Origin: a virus
Taxonomy: Duplodnaviria; Heunggongvirae; Uroviricota; Caudoviricetes
Strand: one strand, 5' to 3'
Virus record (IMG/VR): IMGVR_UViG_2529292735_000009
Coordinates: 1-11,942 of that record
DNA length: 11,942 bases
Made by a program: the position numbers and the translations under genes. Shown piece by piece: positions 5,884 to 11,830 of this stretch. The first letter of the stretch is position 1, and each line of letters begins with the position of its first letter. The notes below the pieces were generated by a model. That model saw only the letters and a list, made by a program, of their open reading frames with translations, was not told where the DNA came from and did not search any database.

Positions 5884-5934
5884 CTCTTAACCTTATAACA
5901 TGTGTGGTCTGAAATAATAATTAAGGAGATTATC

Positions 5935-6507
5935 GTGCTATCTTACTTAATGGCAATTCACTTTGTTTTATTTGGAAACTCTACTAATTTAAAAGACTTC
6001 TGGAAACATGAAGTAATTCGGCGGAAACGTATGGATATCTGGAGGCTTTTAAGAGAGAAAAAGCAGCGTAACCGGAATTTCCTTTTCTGGTGGCGGTTGG
6101 CTAACGAAATGTATATTAATGGTAATAAATTACATAAGAAAGCAGCCAAAAAATTAAACAGTAAAATAATTAACAAGTTTGGTTGTGAAATAGGATTGGG
6201 CGCAAATATTGGAAAAGGGTTGACAATTCCCCATCATGCTGGAATTGTTGTTCATTTTGCTGTTGATGCGGGTGAAAATCTGGTATTACGACAGAATACT
6301 ACCATTGGACAGATAGATGGTGATATGCCTGGTTCAAGAGTAAAAATTGGTAGTAACGTTGATATCGGAGCTAATTGTTGCATCATTGGATTATCACGTA
6401 AAATTGGGGATAATGTAAAAATAGGTGCAATGTCTTTTATAAATAAAGATATACCATCAAACTGCACATATATAACTAAAAAGAGTGGTGTTGTATTGTA
6501 TAAATAG
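5935..6507 (+). CDS. Hexapeptide-repeat (left-handed beta-helix) acetyltransferase, serine-acetyltransferase/WcaB/LacA-like; probable prophage moron
   Basis: ORF 5902..6507. RBS AAGGAG 5923-5928, then GTG 5935 at 6-nt spacing (alternative starts GTG 5902, ATG 5950). Motifs typical of the CysE-like acyltransferase fold: FWWRLANEMYINGNKLHKKAAKKLNSKI, GCEIGLGANIGKGLTIPHHAGIVV, tandem [LIV]G hexapeptide repeats, C-terminal IGANCCIIG...IGAMSFINKDIPSN. G+C visibly far lower than the flanking tail genes. Confidence 0.8.
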   Translation: MLSYLMAIHFVLFGNSTNLKDFWKHEVIRRKRMDIWRLLREKKQRNRNFLFWWRLANEMYINGNKLHKKAAKKLNSKIINKFGCEIGLGANIGKGLTIPHHAGIVVHFAVDAGENLVLRQNTTIGQIDGDMPGSRVKIGSNVDIGANCCIIGLSRKIGDNVKIGAMSFINKDIPSNCTYITKKSGVVLYK

Positions 6508-6514
6508 AATACAT

Positions 6515-6555
6515 AAAGCCATCGATATTTCTGTCGATGGCTTTTTCTTTTTATT
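6515..6555. terminator. Intrinsic terminator between convergent genes: 11-bp perfect stem AAAGCCATCGA / TCGATGGCTTT, 8-nt loop, T-rich tail
   Basis: Stem 6515-6525 and 6534-6544, loop 6526-6533, then TTCTTTTTATT (6545-6555). On the minus strand the hairpin is followed by a weaker U-rich stretch, so it could also serve tfa. Confidence 0.6.
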
Positions 6556-7135
6556 GTGGGGCGACTGGCCACTCAACATCCGCTGCTACTGTTGTATCAA
6601 CACGATTCAACAATACCCGATATGTCTTCCATGCAGCCAGTAACGATGCCTCTTCCTCCGTCGCAATATCCAAATCTACGGCATCCTGAAGTGGCGCAAT
6701 ATGCTCACTGGCTACCTGCATCAGGCTGTTTTTTGTTTCTTCTGCCTCCCGTACCCGAAACAGTTTTTCTGCTTCTGCATCTTTCGCCCAGGATGTGCCG
6801 TTCCACTTCTGACACTCTCCATCCGGCGACAACCAGGTAACATTTTCCGGTAACGGACCGAGTTCAGAAATAAATAACGCGTCCCCTGATGCCACGTCAT
6901 AAACAGTTTTACCCCGATGATCTTCAACGAGATGCCACGATGCCTCATCACTGTTGAAAACAGCCACGAAGCCAGCCGGAATATCTGGCGGTGCAATATC
7001 GGTACTGTTTGCAGGCAGACCTGTATGAGGTGGAATGTATGCATCACCTTCCCCAATAAATTCATTAGTTCCGGCCAGCAGGTTATAAATTTTTATGGTC
7101 CGTGATTGTTCACTCATTCTGAAATCCATGTTCAC
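6551..7135 (-). CDS. tfa: Tail fibre assembly protein (Tfa, lambda/e14 TfaE-like chaperone)
   Basis: 194-aa ORF ([55 protein letters not shown]...), very close to E. coli prophage Tfa proteins as I remember them. GTG 7135 has no spacer after the GAGG RBS, so ATG 7129 is a likely true start. Confidence 0.88.
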
Positions 7136-7137
7136 CT

Positions 7138-7506
7138 CTACTTAATATCAGAGACAGAATATTGTTTATTGAGCGTATGGGTGGGAGTACCAATAACGAT
7201 GCTACTTCCGTGGCTATGTGCGCCAGAGGTGACATTACCTACGGGATTTTCTGGATTAATCCGGTGTATATGCGAACCAGGGCGAAAACGGTTATTAGCC
7301 TGATGTTGTATCAGTACATCATCAGCCTGATGTTCAGGGTTAATACAGACTTGCCCGGAACGTGAGCAACACGTCCGATAATCGCCGCATCCAATATATT
7401 TAGTATCCGCATAACGGCAAACAGAATTACCCGGACAGTATGCATATGTGCCAAATACTGCCGACTGGCGAGATTGTGCGTATTCCCAGTTAATTGATTC
7501 TGTTTT
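7138..7506 (-). other. 122-codon open frame without start codon, Cys/His-rich; probable C-terminal continuation of the macro-domain protein after a homopolymer indel, or relic of an older tail-fibre 3' end
   Basis: The frame opens exactly at the A6 run (plus-strand T6 7503-7508) where the macro domain ends, and stops at TAG 7140-7138, 2 nt before the tfa start. Translation: [60 protein letters not shown]...[33 protein letters not shown]. Confidence 0.4.
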
Positions 7507-8039
7507 TTATTAAAGTTATCCCATGCCTGCTTCATCTGTCGTGCAACACTTTCAAACGGCACCTGACCACATCCGGCCCCCATTGCAGGGAATACCACTG
7601 TTTTTATTTTCATGTCTGTCGTTGCGTTTTTATTGTGCTGAAAGATGGCAAGCAGAGCGGCCCAGGTTGCGTTATATACAGCGTCTGTTCCGTCAATTGT
7701 CAACGGAACACGCATTGTTGGCGCATGTACCAGCCAGGGGTGATGATTATGCCCCGTTTCAATGACAAATGCAGAACCTACAGGCTGTTCGCCGAGATAT
7801 TCACGAAGAATATGATTCTGAACGCGGGACTGTAACTGAGTACCGAAGAATGCGGTAATGGCGGCATCAACGCCACCATCCATCAGGCCGAAACTATTTG
7901 CCGCACTTACCATGCAGTCAAATTCTCTGATTGTTTCAAATGGCTTTCCGACAATATTCACACTATCTGCATTTGCAAATATCCGTTTAAATGCTTCAGC
8001 CATTTCTGTTACTGGTGCAGAAAGAATGAGCGTAATCAT
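7311..8039 (-). CDS. Macro-domain protein (ADP-ribose binding / ADP-ribosyl hydrolase fold), as read in the given frame; probably longer (see next feature)
   Basis: ATG 8039-8037 overlaps the H stop (ATGA). Macro signatures: [28 protein letters not shown] (compare VNAAN..L..GGGV..AI) and [26 protein letters not shown] (compare FPAIS.G.YG.P). G+C lower than the neighbouring tail genes. Confidence 0.75.
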
Positions 8040-10054
8040 GCAAGCCTCACAATATAGTTAAATGCGATGTTTTTTACGGTGTTTTCTGCGTTACCCGTAG
8101 CGTTAACGGTGATGGTATGCCCGTGTGAACCTATCGCAACGGAGTGTGTGTGTGCACCAATTCCTACCGTATGAGTGTGTGCGCCAATATTTACTGTGTG
8201 AGAGTGCCCCCCTGCGTTACTTGTTTTTCCAGTGCCAAGCCCTGAGTTATAACCAGCCGAAACACCATTACCAGCACCAGTGTTGCCAACAGGAATATTG
8301 TGTGAATGATCCCCGGCGCTATTCGTGGTTTTAGTGCCATGGTTAAATGAACTGGACGTCTTGGTACCGTAATCAAACGACGATGTGGTTTTCGTCCCCA
8401 AATCCGTACTGGATGCACTGGCGCTGTGGGTGTGCGATTTAATGCCGTCCTGTTCCTGAGACAATACTGCACGACCACTGGCGGGCTTGCCCTTAATCGT
8501 CCAGCTACGCATATCAGGGATCACGCCTGACGGATAAGCGGCTGCAAGTTTCGGGTATGCAGATTTGTCAAAAGTCTGCCCCTGCATCAGGGCATAACCA
8601 GACGGAACGGTATCTGATGGCCAAGGGATCGGTGCGCCAACCGGATAAAGTTCATGAGGCGAAATATACAGCGAATAAACAGAACCGTCCGTTAATCCTT
8701 CCGGCTTATTAGCAGAATATGCTGGTGAAGTATGAATCGTTACGCTGGCGTTACTGGTATAATCCCATTGAATATTTACACCAGTCGCATAATTTCCGAT
8801 TGCAACGTAAATATCGTAAGTATCACCAGATGTATTGACCCAGGCAAAATTTGTAAACCCTGCCGATGTGCGCTGCCATAAAGCACCAGTAATCCCCTTC
8901 GGATTACCATTACCTGCACGCAAAACAAGTTCAGATATACCTGCCTGTTGAGGTGAGCCGACGTTATATCCAGCCCCACCAATCAACGTAATTGAAACAA
9001 CAGAACTCGCCTGCGGCATGGTTACCGTTGCTAATTTGAACCAACCAGCACCACTGCTGAATGACATAGTTGTTGAGTTAAGCGTACCAATATCTTTCGG
9101 TGTCAGTGTTATATCCGCTGAAAGCGCCTTACCATTCACCTTACGGGCAGAAGGTACCCGACCATTCGCATTGTCATTAGCTGCTTTCACTGCTTTCGAT
9201 GTCGCAGCAAGCGTTTCAGATGTGCTGTTAGTCGCGCTGCTTAGCTGGACAATCCCTTTTTGTGCTGTCGTAGCGTCCTGAGCGGTATATTTCCCGTTAG
9301 CAAGGTCATATGCTGCCTTTACCGCCATTGGTGTTGCCGCCAGCGTTTCAGAATCGCTGTTGGTGGCGCTACTGAGCTGGACAAGGCCTTTTCGCGCTGT
9401 GGTGGCATCCTGCGCAGTATATTTCCCGTTAGCAAGATCATACGCGGCCTTTACTGCTTTCGGCGTTGCAGCCTGCGTTTCAGACACGCTGGTAGTGTCG
9501 CTACTGAGTTGAACAAAGCCTTTTTGCGGTCAGCGAGGCATCCGGGGTGACGTCGTGACTGTTCATGCTCTTTCAGTTTGTCATCCACGTAATCCACTGT
9601 GGCCATCACCATGGTGTTATCCACGGTAAGCGCCACGGTGGCAGTGCTGGATACGGTCAGAATGGTGCGAAATGTTTGTGCACGACCGGACCCTTCGGCA
9701 ACGGCTGGCTTGTAACTTTCGGCAGTATTGACCCACCGCGATTAAATCGCCGTGCTCATCAAATACACCAATTTCCCGGATCCAGAATCCGCCCGTTTCA
9801 GGAGGAATAACCAGCTCCGCAATAATGCGGTTCTGATGTGTTGCGTCCAGGATGACGCGATTAACAGTGTGTCGCCACACCTCATGCACCAGACGGGTCT
9901 GCTTACTGTCTGGTGTGGGCAACGTGCCGCCACCGTCGCCCACGGCCATATGAGTCAGGCGGACAGGCTTACCATCTGGCGCGGCTGCCTGAGCTAATTT
10001 TTTGGCACCCGTATCGGTGATAAGGGTTTTAAATTTTCGTGTTGTGGTACTCAT
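8036..10054 (-). CDS. H: Tail fibre protein (P2 gpH-like N-terminus, tandem fibre repeats, gp37/Stf-like HxH C-terminus); three frameshifts at 9732-9734, 9545-9548 and 9521-9525
   Basis: ORF 9617..10054 ([28 protein letters not shown]...MAVGDGGG...HEVWRH...[10 protein letters not shown]) matches the P2 H N-terminus; ORF 9451..9636 ([28 protein letters not shown]) and ORF 8036..9487 continue it. Fragments join colinearly if one base is removed from CCC 9732-9734, GGGG 9545-9548 and TTTTT 9521-9525. C-terminus carries [32 protein letters not shown] repeats. Confidence 0.9.
9150..9530 (-). repeat. In-frame tandem repeat, ~132 nt (44 aa) period, ~2.8 copies, inside the tail fibre gene
   Basis: Protein repeats KG[FLI][36 protein letters not shown] occur three times; the DNA repeat is visible on the plus strand (tatatttcccgttagcaag[g/a]tcata... 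twice). Boundaries approximate. Confidence 0.6.
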
Positions 10055-10056
10055 GC

Positions 10057-10587
10057 TTAATCGTCCGGATAAATGGTAATGACTTCACCGTCGTAAGTTG
10101 CTGCCGCCGCGAAAATATCCCCCGGGATCTCCTGAATGATATTCAGCCCTGTCATGTGGCGGCTGACCGGGCGGGCATCAGCAATCAACCGCTCCATTTC
10201 CAGATACATTTCCTCCGTCACGCCACTGTCCAGCGTGCCGACTTCAACGGTAAATGTTCCCGGTTCTCCGCCGAACTCCCACCACTCAGACACGCGAATG
10301 AGGTATCCCAGCGGCTCAATGGCCCTGCGCAGTGCGCTGATGGTCCCTTTGTGTCGGTGTATCAGCCATGCATCACTAATCACCTGTCGCTTTGTCTCTT
10401 CCGGCCAGTTGCGATCCCAGCGGTCAACGGAAAACGCCCAGGCGAGATAAGGCAGCAGGTGCACCGGGCAGGTGTCCGGCGACCACAGCGTGTTGAGGTC
10501 TACCGGAATGTCTGTAATGCGTGTTCCGACGGCTTCGGCACAACGCATGAAACTGCTGGCTGATGGTGGTAACAGTGAATTACTCAT
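10057..10587 (-). CDS. I: Baseplate protein gpI-like (tail protein I)
   Basis: ORF 10057..10620, but the likely start is ATG 10587, overlapping the J stop (ATGAGTAA), giving 176 aa (P2 gpI is about that size). Stop is 2 nt before the H start. Confidence 0.85.
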   Translation of the reverse strand: MSNSLLPPSASSFMRCAEAVGTRITDIPVDLNTLWSPDTCPVHLLPYLAWAFSVDRWDRNWPEETKRQVISDAWLIHRHKGTISALRRAIEPLGYLIRVSEWWEFGGEPGTFTVEVGTLDSGVTEEMYLEMERLIADARPVSRHMTGLNIIQEIPGDIFAAAATYDGEVITIYPDD

Positions 10588-11476
10588 TGCGCCCACCTTC
10601 GCTGATGGTGAATGACTCACAGCGCGCTGCCTGTATGTCGCTGATGGCCATATTCTGTGTGGGTTCGATTATCTCCACGCGTTGCACACCGTGCACATGC
10701 AGTGCGGCAGCAATGGCGGACAACGCCACGTCCTGACCGATAAGCCCCTGCTCAGCCAGCCACTTCCTGAACGACGATTCCGCCGCAGCCAGAATAGGTT
10801 CGGATTCCGGGCCGGGGTAAAAGTACAGTTTTGCATTCAGCCGCCATGTCACGATTCTGGCACTCTGTACGGTCAGGCGGTCGGCCACCGGGCGGGTATC
10901 CTCTGCATTCAGAACGGCGCGAACGGTATTAAGCAACGCCTCCGTTGCTGTGCCGTCGCCTTCAGTGGACAGGATGGAAACCGTCACATTTGCCGGAGAC
11001 GGACTGATAGCCCGCGCATCACGCACCAGACCGCTGGCGCTGCGGGCAAAATACTCGTATGCACCTGACGGGCCAGCAACACTCAGGCCGTCGTACGCCC
11101 GTTGCGCCCGCAGTCTCAGCGAGGTGTCGCTTTCCATCACCGCGTCGGTGGTATCCGTTGCCGGAGTGATAACCAGGCGCTTTGTGTTCATATTGCCCGC
11201 GAGGTTGTCCAGGTCTGTCCCGGCGCTGTGGCTTAACATGCAGGCGCGTGCACCCTCGTTAACCCGCTGGCGTAACAGCATTTCACGAAACGACATGGTT
11301 TGAGCGATAACGTTAAGGGGTTCCGATTCCAGCTCCAGCGCGGCGGAAACGGCTTCACGCTGTTCGGCGGGATAAGCCGCAATCATCATGGCCTTTGTGT
11401 CAGCCAGAATTGCCTCAAAGTCAGGCTCCGCGATGATGGCGGGGTCCGGTAACTGTGAAAGGTCAACGGCGGGCAT
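10580..11476 (-). CDS. J: Baseplate assembly protein gpJ-like (baseplate wedge)
   Basis: 298-aa ORF, similar in size to P2 gpJ as I recall it; starts 3 nt after the W stop, with RBS GAGGGA inside the W 3' end. The J identity rests on position and size within the V-W-J-I-H order rather than on motifs I can quote. Confidence 0.88.
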   Translation of the reverse strand: MPAVDLSQLPDPAIIAEPDFEAILADTKAMMIAAYPAEQREAVSAALELESEPLNVIAQTMSFREMLLRQRVNEGARACMLSHSAGTDLDNLAGNMNTKRLVITPATDTTDAVMESDTSLRLRAQRAYDGLSVAGPSGAYEYFARSASGLVRDARAISPSPANVTVSILSTEGDGTATEALLNTVRAVLNAEDTRPVADRLTVQSARIVTWRLNAKLYFYPGPESEPILAAAESSFRKWLAEQGLIGQDVALSAIAAALHVHGVQRVEIIEPTQNMAISDIQAARCESFTISEGGRNE

Positions 11477-11479
11477 GAT

Positions 11480-11830
11480 TTACTCCCTCAGCGTGATGGT
11501 TAATTCAACATTCTGCATGGTCTGCATGACAGTGCCCGACAGCGTCACCCCGGCGCGGCCTCCCGCTTTCCAGACAACGTCGATGGCATCCAGGGCAATG
11601 CGGGGTTCCCATCGTGTCAGCGCAATCACGGCAGCACTCATGCATTGCAGACGCGTGGTGTTATTCATGGGTTCGTCAATCAAATCAGGCACAAGGCTGC
11701 CATATTCCCGTCGCATAACCCGGCTTGCCAGCGGGGTGGTCAGGATATCCCTGACTGACTGTTTCAGGTGCTCCATATCGTTCAGGTTTCCCGTCCCGTC
11801 CGGATTCATTCCTGTGTAGCGGGTTGTCAC
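11480..11830 (-). CDS. W: Baseplate protein gpW-like (gp25/GPW family)
   Basis: 116-aa ORF MTTRYTGMNPDGTGNLNDMEHLKQSVRDILTTPLASRVMRREYGSLVPDLID..., matching P2 gpW (MTARYLGMNR...DLEHI.QSI.DIL.TP.GSRVMRRDYGSL) in sequence and length. GTG start overlaps the stop of the upstream gene (GTGA). Confidence 0.9.
   Translation of the reverse strand: MTTRYTGMNPDGTGNLNDMEHLKQSVRDILTTPLASRVMRREYGSLVPDLIDEPMNNTTRLQCMSAAVIALTRWEPRIALDAIDVVWKAGGRAGVTLSGTVMQTMQNVELTITLRE

Follow-up and report, generated by a model that had tools for sequence, protein, structure and literature searches.

A 300-codon macro-domain gene with a fibre-like HxH tail, broken at a homopolymer, lies between the tail fibre gene and tfa in an Escherichia coli DEC14C contig

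The window analysed here is the whole 11,942-nucleotide (nt) stretch of the caudovirus record IMGVR_UViG_2529292735_000009, which an exact-sequence look-up assigned to a draft contig of Escherichia coli DEC14C (EHX96976.1). Its minus strand carries a block of tail genes, which converges on plus-strand genes for sheath, tube, tape measure and a hexapeptide acetyltransferase. Within this block, an open reading frame (ORF) for a macro-domain protein is situated between the distal part of a tail fibre gene and tfa, the gene of the tail fibre assembly chaperone (Table 1). A second frame, which lacks a start codon, extends downstream of the macro-domain ORF towards tfa. The initial annotation had considered its last part, 7138–7310, as the possible tip of an older fibre, left behind out of frame after recombination had introduced a new fibre C-terminus together with the macro gene. 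Instead, the segment 7138–7310 is the 3′ end of one 903-nt gene, which runs from 8039 to 7138 on the minus strand and encodes a product of 300 amino acids. Taken as a whole, the locus very probably represents a broken 300-codon macro gene with a fibre-like tail and not a fibre relic.

Translation of the minus strand from 7138 to 7560 confirmed the sequence and the coordinates which the initial annotation had given for the startless frame, and places its stop codon at 7138–7140. This frame corresponds to residues 180–300 of the intact protein. A megablast search of 5,426 complete E. coli genomes with 6551–8100 as query retrieved 119 genomes with at least 80% query coverage and identities of up to 99.1%. 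In the close relatives L001 and L002, whose loci are 99.1% and 97.1% identical to the window, the locus comprises a single 903-nt coding sequence (CDS), annotated in RefSeq as a 'macro domain-containing protein' of 300 amino acids (WP_000631340.1 and WP_000631344.1). The ATG of this CDS overlaps the stop codon of the fibre gene, its end is located 8 nt before tfa, and both translations run in frame into the segment 7138–7310. The segment is likewise in frame with the macro domain in Chuche, Gifsy-1 and SEN5. Once one base is repaired, the window copy is about 99% identical to P0005, the representative of the cluster of 300-residue proteins.

When the window is aligned with L001 and L002, a lone 1-nt gap appears in a T run near 7502. 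The relatives possess seven T residues in place of the six at 7503–7508, and the extra base is the first A of the codon for Thr180. The intact coding strand reads AAT AAA AAA ACA GAA TCA (N K K T E S), whereas the window is one A short, which results in an out-of-frame reading up to the stop at 7311. This 1-nt homopolymer deletion gives rise to both the 242-residue ORF and the startless frame; the out-of-frame state, previously taken as a trace of recombination, is thus due to one missing base in the T7 run. Moreover, the Cys-containing segment of the gene is overlapped in the contig by a spurious out-of-frame extension of the 242-residue ORF (7311–7502). An uninterrupted reading frame, as tested for membership in the family PHROG 2613, is absent from the window owing to T6 versus T7, and the window copy is a frameshifted, or mis-sequenced, member of this family. 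The contig annotation can be corrected in that the 242-residue ORF and the 'intergenic' stretch 7138–7310 form one 300-codon gene broken at a homopolymer, and no relic of a host-range exchange is recorded in the window.

Table 1. Features of the macro gene locus and of the adjoining tail genes in the window.
Feature	Position	Strand	Basis
gpW	11480–11830	minus	
gpJ	10580–11476	minus	
gpI	10057–10620	minus	
Tail fibre N-terminal ORF	9617–10054	minus	
Distal tail fibre gene, lambda-Stf type, with HxH repeats	8036–9487	minus	Pfam Phage_fiber_2, Collar, Phage_fiber; C-termini compared
Macro-domain ORF, 242 amino acids	7311–8039	minus	
Macro domain, codons 1–177	7509–8039	minus	PF01661, 67.9 bits (cut-off 22), residues 44–169
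Frameshift site, T6 homopolymer (A6 on the coding strand; codons K178, K179)	7503–7508	minus	Alignment with L001 and L002
Four-Cys segment INWxYA...AYCP...C...YIGxGDYRTxC...C, codons ~180–232	7345–7502	minus	Alignments, dN/dS, PHROG 2613 positions 181–272
Conserved Cys: C202, C208, C225, C232	7437–7435, 7419–7417, 7368–7366, 7347–7345	minus	
HxH-repeat tail, codons 244–300 and stop (7138–7140) of the full-length macro-domain gene	7138–7310	minus	Translation
Tail repeats: GSHIH, GAHSH, degenerate GTPTHT	7278–7264, 7224–7210, 7191–7174	minus	
Spacer between macro stop and tfa ATG, 8 nt	7130–7137	minus	Junction comparison; 3′ edge of cassette
tfa, tail fibre assembly chaperone	6551–7129/7135	minus	Caudo_TAP, 136.7 bits; RefSeq annotation

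Comparison with phages devoid of the macro gene defines the borders of the insert. In lambda, a P1-like phage and many others, the query was matched in two pieces which are adjacent in those genomes, and in lambda and the P1-like phage the fibre end and tfa follow directly upon each other. At the level of single bases, the homology of the fibre gene to these two phages runs to ...GTGAGGCTTGCAT and resumes at TTCAGAATGAGT of tfa (7129/7123). The stop codon of the fibre is TAA in lambda and TGA in the window, where it forms the sequence ATGA (8039–8036) with the start codon of the macro gene (ATG, 8039–8037). At the other border, the 8-nt spacer in combination with the last base of the macro stop codon reads GAGGTGAAC and contains a Shine-Dalgarno-like sequence for tfa (GAGGTG). 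The insert consists of the macro ORF and the 8-nt spacer, a one-gene cassette placed exactly between the lambda-Stf-type fibre end and tfa. An 18-residue fibre end is conserved in all fibres compared, irrespective of whether the macro gene follows, and is contiguous with tfa in the cassette-free phages. The DNA of tfa is 94–95% identical (blastn) to that of two phages without the macro gene, lambda and the P1-like phage, indicating that this gene is an accessory passenger which is not required by the pair of fibre and chaperone.

The genes are likewise arranged as fibre-macro-tfa, their stop and start codons overlapping, in Chuche, Gifsy-1 and SEN5 as well as in Erwinia, Enterobacter and Salmonella prophages. 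In every intact copy examined the gene is located between fibre and tfa, on lambda-like, Mu-like and P2/SEN4-like backbones. Gifsy-1 is a lambdoid siphovirus with the macro gene beside the side tail fibre, and in SEN5, a member of the Peduoviridae, the layout matches that of the window. The Erwinia prophage has a Baseplate_J gene upstream of the block, the Enterobacter prophage has baseplate genes of the Mu gp45–48 type, and the Salmonella prophage is lambdoid. The proposal of the initial annotation that a passenger gene resides in the host-range module of fibre tip and tfa is thus borne out by the adjacency of fibre end and tfa in lambda and by the recurrence of the block in three backbone types.

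A scan of 6400–8300 for promoters and terminators detected no terminator between the macro gene and tfa and no enrichment of promoter-like sites. The sole strong terminator in the scanned region is a bidirectional hairpin at 6515–6544, after tfa. Since no terminator separates the genes, the macro gene is expressed together with the fibre operon, and it supplies the ribosome-binding site of tfa. The cassette resembles the morons and accessory genes which the stf-tfa host-range module carries in lambdoid, Mu-like and P2-like phages, in that it is a sharply delimited one-gene insert between genes that are contiguous elsewhere and moves with the fibre tip and tfa among unrelated backbones. However, in contrast to autonomous morons, the macro cassette has neither a promoter nor a terminator of its own, is translationally coupled on both sides and forms part of the late operon.

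Two further observations concern the distribution of the cassette. The macro segment was found at 123 places in complete E. coli assemblies, of which 15 are on plasmids, for example the 47.6-kb plasmid NZ_CP145143.1, where the upstream fibre is annotated as stfR; the cassette therefore circulates on plasmids too, possibly on phage-plasmids. A genuine relic of the cassette is present in Salmonella phage SEN34 (L008, 3480–3700). It is composed of an unannotated frame ending in ...YASARQNAVFSTTAYCPSKALCPNARTEYIGFGDYRTYCKKSGNTCISPRHQVDDIYIGAHSHAKRN*, preceded in another frame by LLGTAFVIETGN, a fragment of the macro domain, most of which is deleted. This relic is located after an O-acetyltransferase gene and not between fibre and tfa.

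The homologue search with the full-length protein yielded 1712 proteins, those of 269–300 amino acids covering 88–100% of the query, with family members in Escherichia, Salmonella, Erwinia, Citrobacter and Enterobacter. A full-length query was needed, as a word-indexed search with the tail alone recovered four fragments only. The protein matches phrog_2613, a family of unknown function, with an expect value (E) of 3.5e-146 (residues 1–271; profile positions 1–272 of 274), and the tail alone matches profile positions 181–272 with an E of 6e-38. Three parts can be distinguished in the protein, namely the macro domain (residues 1 to ~177), a segment with four Cys residues (~180–240) and a run of fibre-type G-A/S-H-x-H (His-x-His, HxH) motifs (~255–290). 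The consensus after the macro domain is INWxYAxxRQxAVFxTxAYCPxxxxC(P/R)xAxTxYIGxGDYRTxCxxSGxxCIxxxHQxDD, followed by (I)GAHxH repeats and a variable end. C202, C208, C225, C232 and G255 are among the invariant or nearly invariant residues of the family alignments. The number of strict HxH copies varies from none to four among 81 distinct tails, three of which have none.

In comparison with phage Chuche, the ratio of non-synonymous to synonymous substitutions (dN/dS, Nei-Gojobori) lies at 0.14 in the macro domain and at 0.15 in the Cys segment, and reaches 0.31 in the HxH part; the frame of the tail is under purifying selection. The G+C content of the tail (0.44–0.45) is close to that of the macro domain (0.46), so that the compositional discontinuity which the initial annotation had suggested looking for is absent at this junction; the fibre gene and tfa have values of 0.49 and 0.48. 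In a HMMER search of 1.84 billion representative proteins the tail profile was essentially confined to the macro family. Similarly, when the tail (121 amino acids) was compared by tblastn with 50,697 phage genomes, all significant matches (E 8e-17 or better) were macro proteins (Chuche, Gifsy-1, SEN4/5 and a fragment in SEN34); no tail fibre was found in these genomes, the remaining matches having E values of at least 0.3.

The same gene, with identical architecture and position between fibre and tfa, is represented by WP_000631340.1/WP_000631344.1, Gifsy-1 STM2588.1n, SEN5 gp19, Chuche CDS0053 and PHROG 2613, and it is hence already catalogued in RefSeq, in PHROG 2613 and as STM2588.1n. With respect to the RefSeq and PHROG 2613 members, the window copy is distinguished by the split through the 1-nt deletion and by a third HxH repeat without its first His (GTPTHT, where close relatives keep GAHTHT). 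Salmonella and Erwinia members display other numbers of HxH repeats and other extreme C-termini. Full-text searches of the literature turned up no paper about these proteins or about a macro gene located between stf and tfa.

Weak similarities of the tail profile to other proteins were noted as well. The Cys-rich segment (profile positions 16–48, window ~7345–7450) gave weak matches to ricin-type beta-trefoil repeats in P0144, a 1188-residue GH25 lysozyme-like protein (E 5.9e-4, six stretches). The ricin-type match is possibly due to chance; a true relationship would point to a fold that binds carbohydrates. A further weak HMMER match was to a SKICH/phosphatase protein; both matches were taken as leads and not as evidence.

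Upstream of the frameshift the macro domain appears intact, as judged from its sequence. In addition to PF01661, PF14519 (Poa1p-like) was matched with 23.3 bits, below the cut-off of 27. In an alignment of 46 sequences, N48-x6-G55 G56 V57 D58 and G154-A-G156-x-G158 are invariant. MacroD-type domains bind adenosine diphosphate (ADP)-ribose through two loops, one with the motif Nx6GG[VLI]D and the other rich in glycine. An AlphaFold2 model calculated with the same alignment has predicted local distance difference test (pLDDT) values of about 70–90 over most of residues 1–178. Foldseek identified the yeast ADP-ribose-1″-monophosphatase (1njr) as best match with an E of 5e-8, and further matches comprise macroH2A, TTHA0132, MacroD2, YmdB and DarG. 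The window protein thus shares the macro fold, the Nx6GGVD motif and the glycine-rich loop with phage macro/DarG-like proteins and with Poa1p/MacroD-type proteins. However, phage Macro proteins are described as typically standalone (PMC9503650), whereas the window protein carries an HxH tail. In the literature searched, no description was found of a fibre-type HxH tail or of a fixed position between fibre and tfa for macro proteins, and the combination of both is a modestly novel variant among phage macro-domain proteins.

In agreement with the initial annotation, the tail resembles the HxH end of the fibre. A scan of the 11.9-kb window in six frames located the motif G[AST]HxH at two sites only, namely in the fibre tip, where its codons begin at 8185, 8158 and 8131, and in the tail (7278 and 7224). 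A pairwise BLASTP of the tail with the window fibre aligned 14 identical residues out of 36 with an E of 0.007 for this single comparison, which is marginal. Comparison of 16 family tails with seven Stf-type tips by hhalign gave a probability of 94.4% and an E of 8.6e-8 over 29 columns, corresponding to three consecutive HxH repeats. With the Salmonella/Erwinia subset (93.0%), the last two repeats were aligned together with the following ...ITVNA / ...HLNP stretch, and tails of the Salmonella type weakly match tail-fibre PHROGs (phrog_295, E 0.0016). At the Salmonella locus L013, the tail DNA encoding IYIGAHTHTIDIG matches the adjacent fibre DNA encoding VYIGGHEHTMYIG in frame over 32 of 38 nt, a score reached by one out of 2000 codon-shuffled tails; among the loci compared, L013 is the only one with a significant match between tail and fibre DNA. 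The tail ends in a 14-residue C-terminus without the invariant fibre terminus, and the tblastn search described above retrieved no fibre.

Comparable repeats are known from fibres and spikes. The tips of lambda Stf and P2 gpH, T4 gp37, R-type pyocin fibres and the apex of P2 gpV display the same G-x-H-x-H-x-hydrophobic motif at short spacing. Three chains of the pyocin fibre, of T4 gp37 or of the P2 gpV spike together provide six His ligands for Fe, so that one Fe (or Zn) is bound on the trimer axis, which may nucleate folding (PMC6116203). The spacing of the repeats is a regular 8 residues in fibres, as opposed to 8–18 residues in the E. coli macro tails, and the repeats terminate an enzyme in the window protein but a fibre in the known systems.

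By analogy with these fibres, the tail may represent a metal-binding, possibly trimerising module on a macro enzyme that would bind or hydrolyse ADP-ribose and would be made late, together with the fibre. This assignment of tail and enzyme is tentative and, on balance, unlikely. The HxH tail would then form a metal-stapled trimer, perhaps in a Tfa-dependent manner. That the macro protein is a metal-stapled, Tfa-folded trimer carried on or delivered with the virion is doubtful. The enzyme would then be physically linked to the host-range apparatus, which would explain both the place of its gene between fibre and tfa, in phages of the lambda, Mu and P2 types, and a tail which copies fibre repeats. 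A survey of viral systems that involve nicotinamide adenine dinucleotide (NAD) or ADP-ribose noted that phage Macro genes are often found among virion morphogenesis genes and proposed that the proteins from these loci are packaged or deployed early against immunity based on NAD or ADP-ribose (PMC9503650). This proposal would fit the gene described here. A tail that trimerises, or that docks on the machinery of the fibre, would provide phages with a new way to deploy an ADP-ribose-processing enzyme; otherwise, the gene is a passenger riding a recombination-prone host-range cassette. A phage macro enzyme with a fibre-type HxH tail and its translationally coupled travel within the fibre-tip/tfa module across unrelated phage types are details not described in the literature searched.

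Several points weigh against the reading of the locus as a macro gene with a functional, fibre-related tail. The function is inferred by analogy only. At the DNA level, matches between tail and fibre within the window, L002 and Chuche are limited to 9–15 nt with E values of at least 0.02, those of the window itself being 9-mers. Six representative tails gave no significant Pfam domain, the best scores with PF03335 (Phage_fiber) being 9.0 and 7.6 bits (E 2.5 and 6.7; cut-off 20), and the tail of the window does not match this profile. A sequence search of the PDB with the tail profile returned nothing even at E values up to 10. In AlphaFold2 monomer models (46 sequences for the full protein, 16 for the tail alone), the HxH part has pLDDT values below 50 and the Cys-rich part values of 58–77, and Foldseek with the tail model found nothing below an E of 1.5; the low values would fit folding in the oligomer only and plain disorder equally well. 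The HxH similarity is short and rich in His and Gly, and may be due to convergence. Furthermore, the macro gene appears dispensable for fibre assembly, as tfa and the fibre end are about 90–95% identical in phages lacking it, which argues against an obligatory structural role. Finally, the missing base in DEC14C may be either a true mutation or a sequencing error.

The origin proposed initially, namely that recombination with a new tip and the macro gene recently left 7138–7310 behind, out of frame, as the non-coding remnant of an older fibre 3′ end, would account for the fibre-like HxH repeats and for the position of the segment directly upstream of tfa. It is refuted by the in-frame 300-residue homologues: all close relatives examined read through from the macro domain into the segment in one frame, and the fused form is conserved in five genera. 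The dN/dS below one, the unbroken composition, the confinement of the tail to the macro family and the location of the invariant terminus on the upstream fibre, which pairs with a matching tfa in lambda, likewise leave a recent relic highly improbable. The initial annotation had set against its own proposal a segment which is conserved at the end of macro-domain proteins and devoid of fibre similarity; the former was found, the latter was not. Coding by the plus-strand ORFs at 7106–7303 (65 amino acids) and 7162–7365 (67 amino acids) deserves hardly any credence: these ORFs are present in the window, but they start with TTG, are antisense to a conserved minus-strand frame under selection and are unannotated in the RefSeq relatives, and no family match was seen for them, no search aimed at one having been made. 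An older event, in which the macro gene fused to or captured a fibre HxH end beside tfa and the tail became a domesticated fibre fragment, has a nearly balanced chance, falling just short of even. It would agree with the hhalign alignment of the tail repeats to the last fibre repeats and beyond, with the in-frame DNA match at L013, with the location between fibre and tfa in every intact copy examined and with a repeat number that varies as in fibres. On the other hand, the matches are short and rich in His and Gly, fibres have nothing that corresponds to the Cys-rich half, and tails and fibres are unrelated at their extreme ends; the same signals would also arise if a metal-binding motif had evolved convergently or if the neighbouring fibre had later served as donor in gene conversion. 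Such a capture is compatible with the 300-codon macro gene as best explanation and concerns its origin only. Homology of the HxH repeats to those of fibres, whether through ancient capture or through occasional gene conversion, is suggested by the sequence comparisons about as strongly as its opposite; it is plausible, with convergence an equal contender, and would pertain to the origin of the family and not to a recent event in the window.

For the 300-codon macro gene, the nature of the missing base has to be considered separately. The exact 70-nt stretch of the window around the run has no exact match among the 121 complete E. coli genomes carrying the segment; all rows listed in this comparison represent the 71-nt (T7) form, and the best match is 70 of 71 over a 71-nt span. 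Three more length differences of one base affect homopolymers of the contig, namely a T run near 9521, a G run near 9544 and a C run near 9731. Those at 9521 and 9544 are absent in both L001 and L009, the locus of O157:H7 PV15-279; the one at 9731 lies beyond L001 and could be compared with L009 only, where it is absent. Together with the macro frameshift, four homopolymer indels are found within 2.3 kb. The three additional differences break the fibre gene, a pattern typical of homopolymer sequencing error, and an error of sequencing or assembly is somewhat more likely than true decay. That the deletion is a true mutation, by which a decaying prophage came to carry the macro gene as a pseudogene or in truncated form, is possible, although it is not the favoured explanation. 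NCBI, ENA and Logan assemblies, among them a 5.2-Mb contig, contain the same truncated 242-residue product as 14 distinct sequences in one cluster and as two in another, more divergent one. The second truncated lineage (P0121) displays 88% identity over 61% of the query. Since the frameshift recurs in this lineage, slippage at the A run has occurred repeatedly, be it by mutation or during sequencing, and the occurrence of the truncated form in several sources indicates that the A7 run does mutate in nature as a slippage hotspot. A bypass of the frameshift, in which a −1 ribosomal slip or transcriptional slippage on A6 restores the full-length protein in a programmed or phase-variable manner, would require a slip after AAA AAA, upon which ACA GAA TCA is read and exactly ...NKKTES... 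is obtained (7497–7512, minus strand). However, the in-frame heptamer is U AAA AAA and not the canonical X XXY YYZ, neither a downstream stimulatory structure nor an internal Shine-Dalgarno sequence was found, although no search aimed at them was made, the A6 allele is rare, and recoding is unneeded where one frame encodes the protein in the relatives. Programmed frameshifting was set aside, as the relatives are in frame, and is considered extremely unlikely.

Further observations concern the genes adjoining the cassette. The fibre gene of the window is split into three ORFs (9617–10054, 9451–9636 and 8036–9487) by single-base homopolymer insertions relative to L009, which served as reference with an intact fibre of 719 amino acids. 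In addition, the fibre gene differs from that of L009 in frame by one 132-nt repeat unit (repeat family D1, 9162–9557). The 3′ half of tfa contains a full-length match to the Rfam family IS009 (RF02111) at 6588–6786 on the minus strand, with 191 bits compared to a gathering score of 117; this match may reflect a real small RNA or conserved tfa coding sequence. On the opposite strand, a gene for a hexapeptide-repeat acetyltransferase (5902–6507, plus strand; G+C 0.34), annotated in RefSeq as serine acetyltransferase, converges on tfa and shares with it the hairpin at 6515–6544. An ORF of the same length (573 nt), annotated as hypothetical, is located beside tfa in the P1-like phage Ro157c2YLVW, and a Hexapep gene is found beside tfa in an Enterobacter Mu-like prophage. 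The hexapeptide acetyltransferase gene looks like a second accessory cassette on the host-range module.

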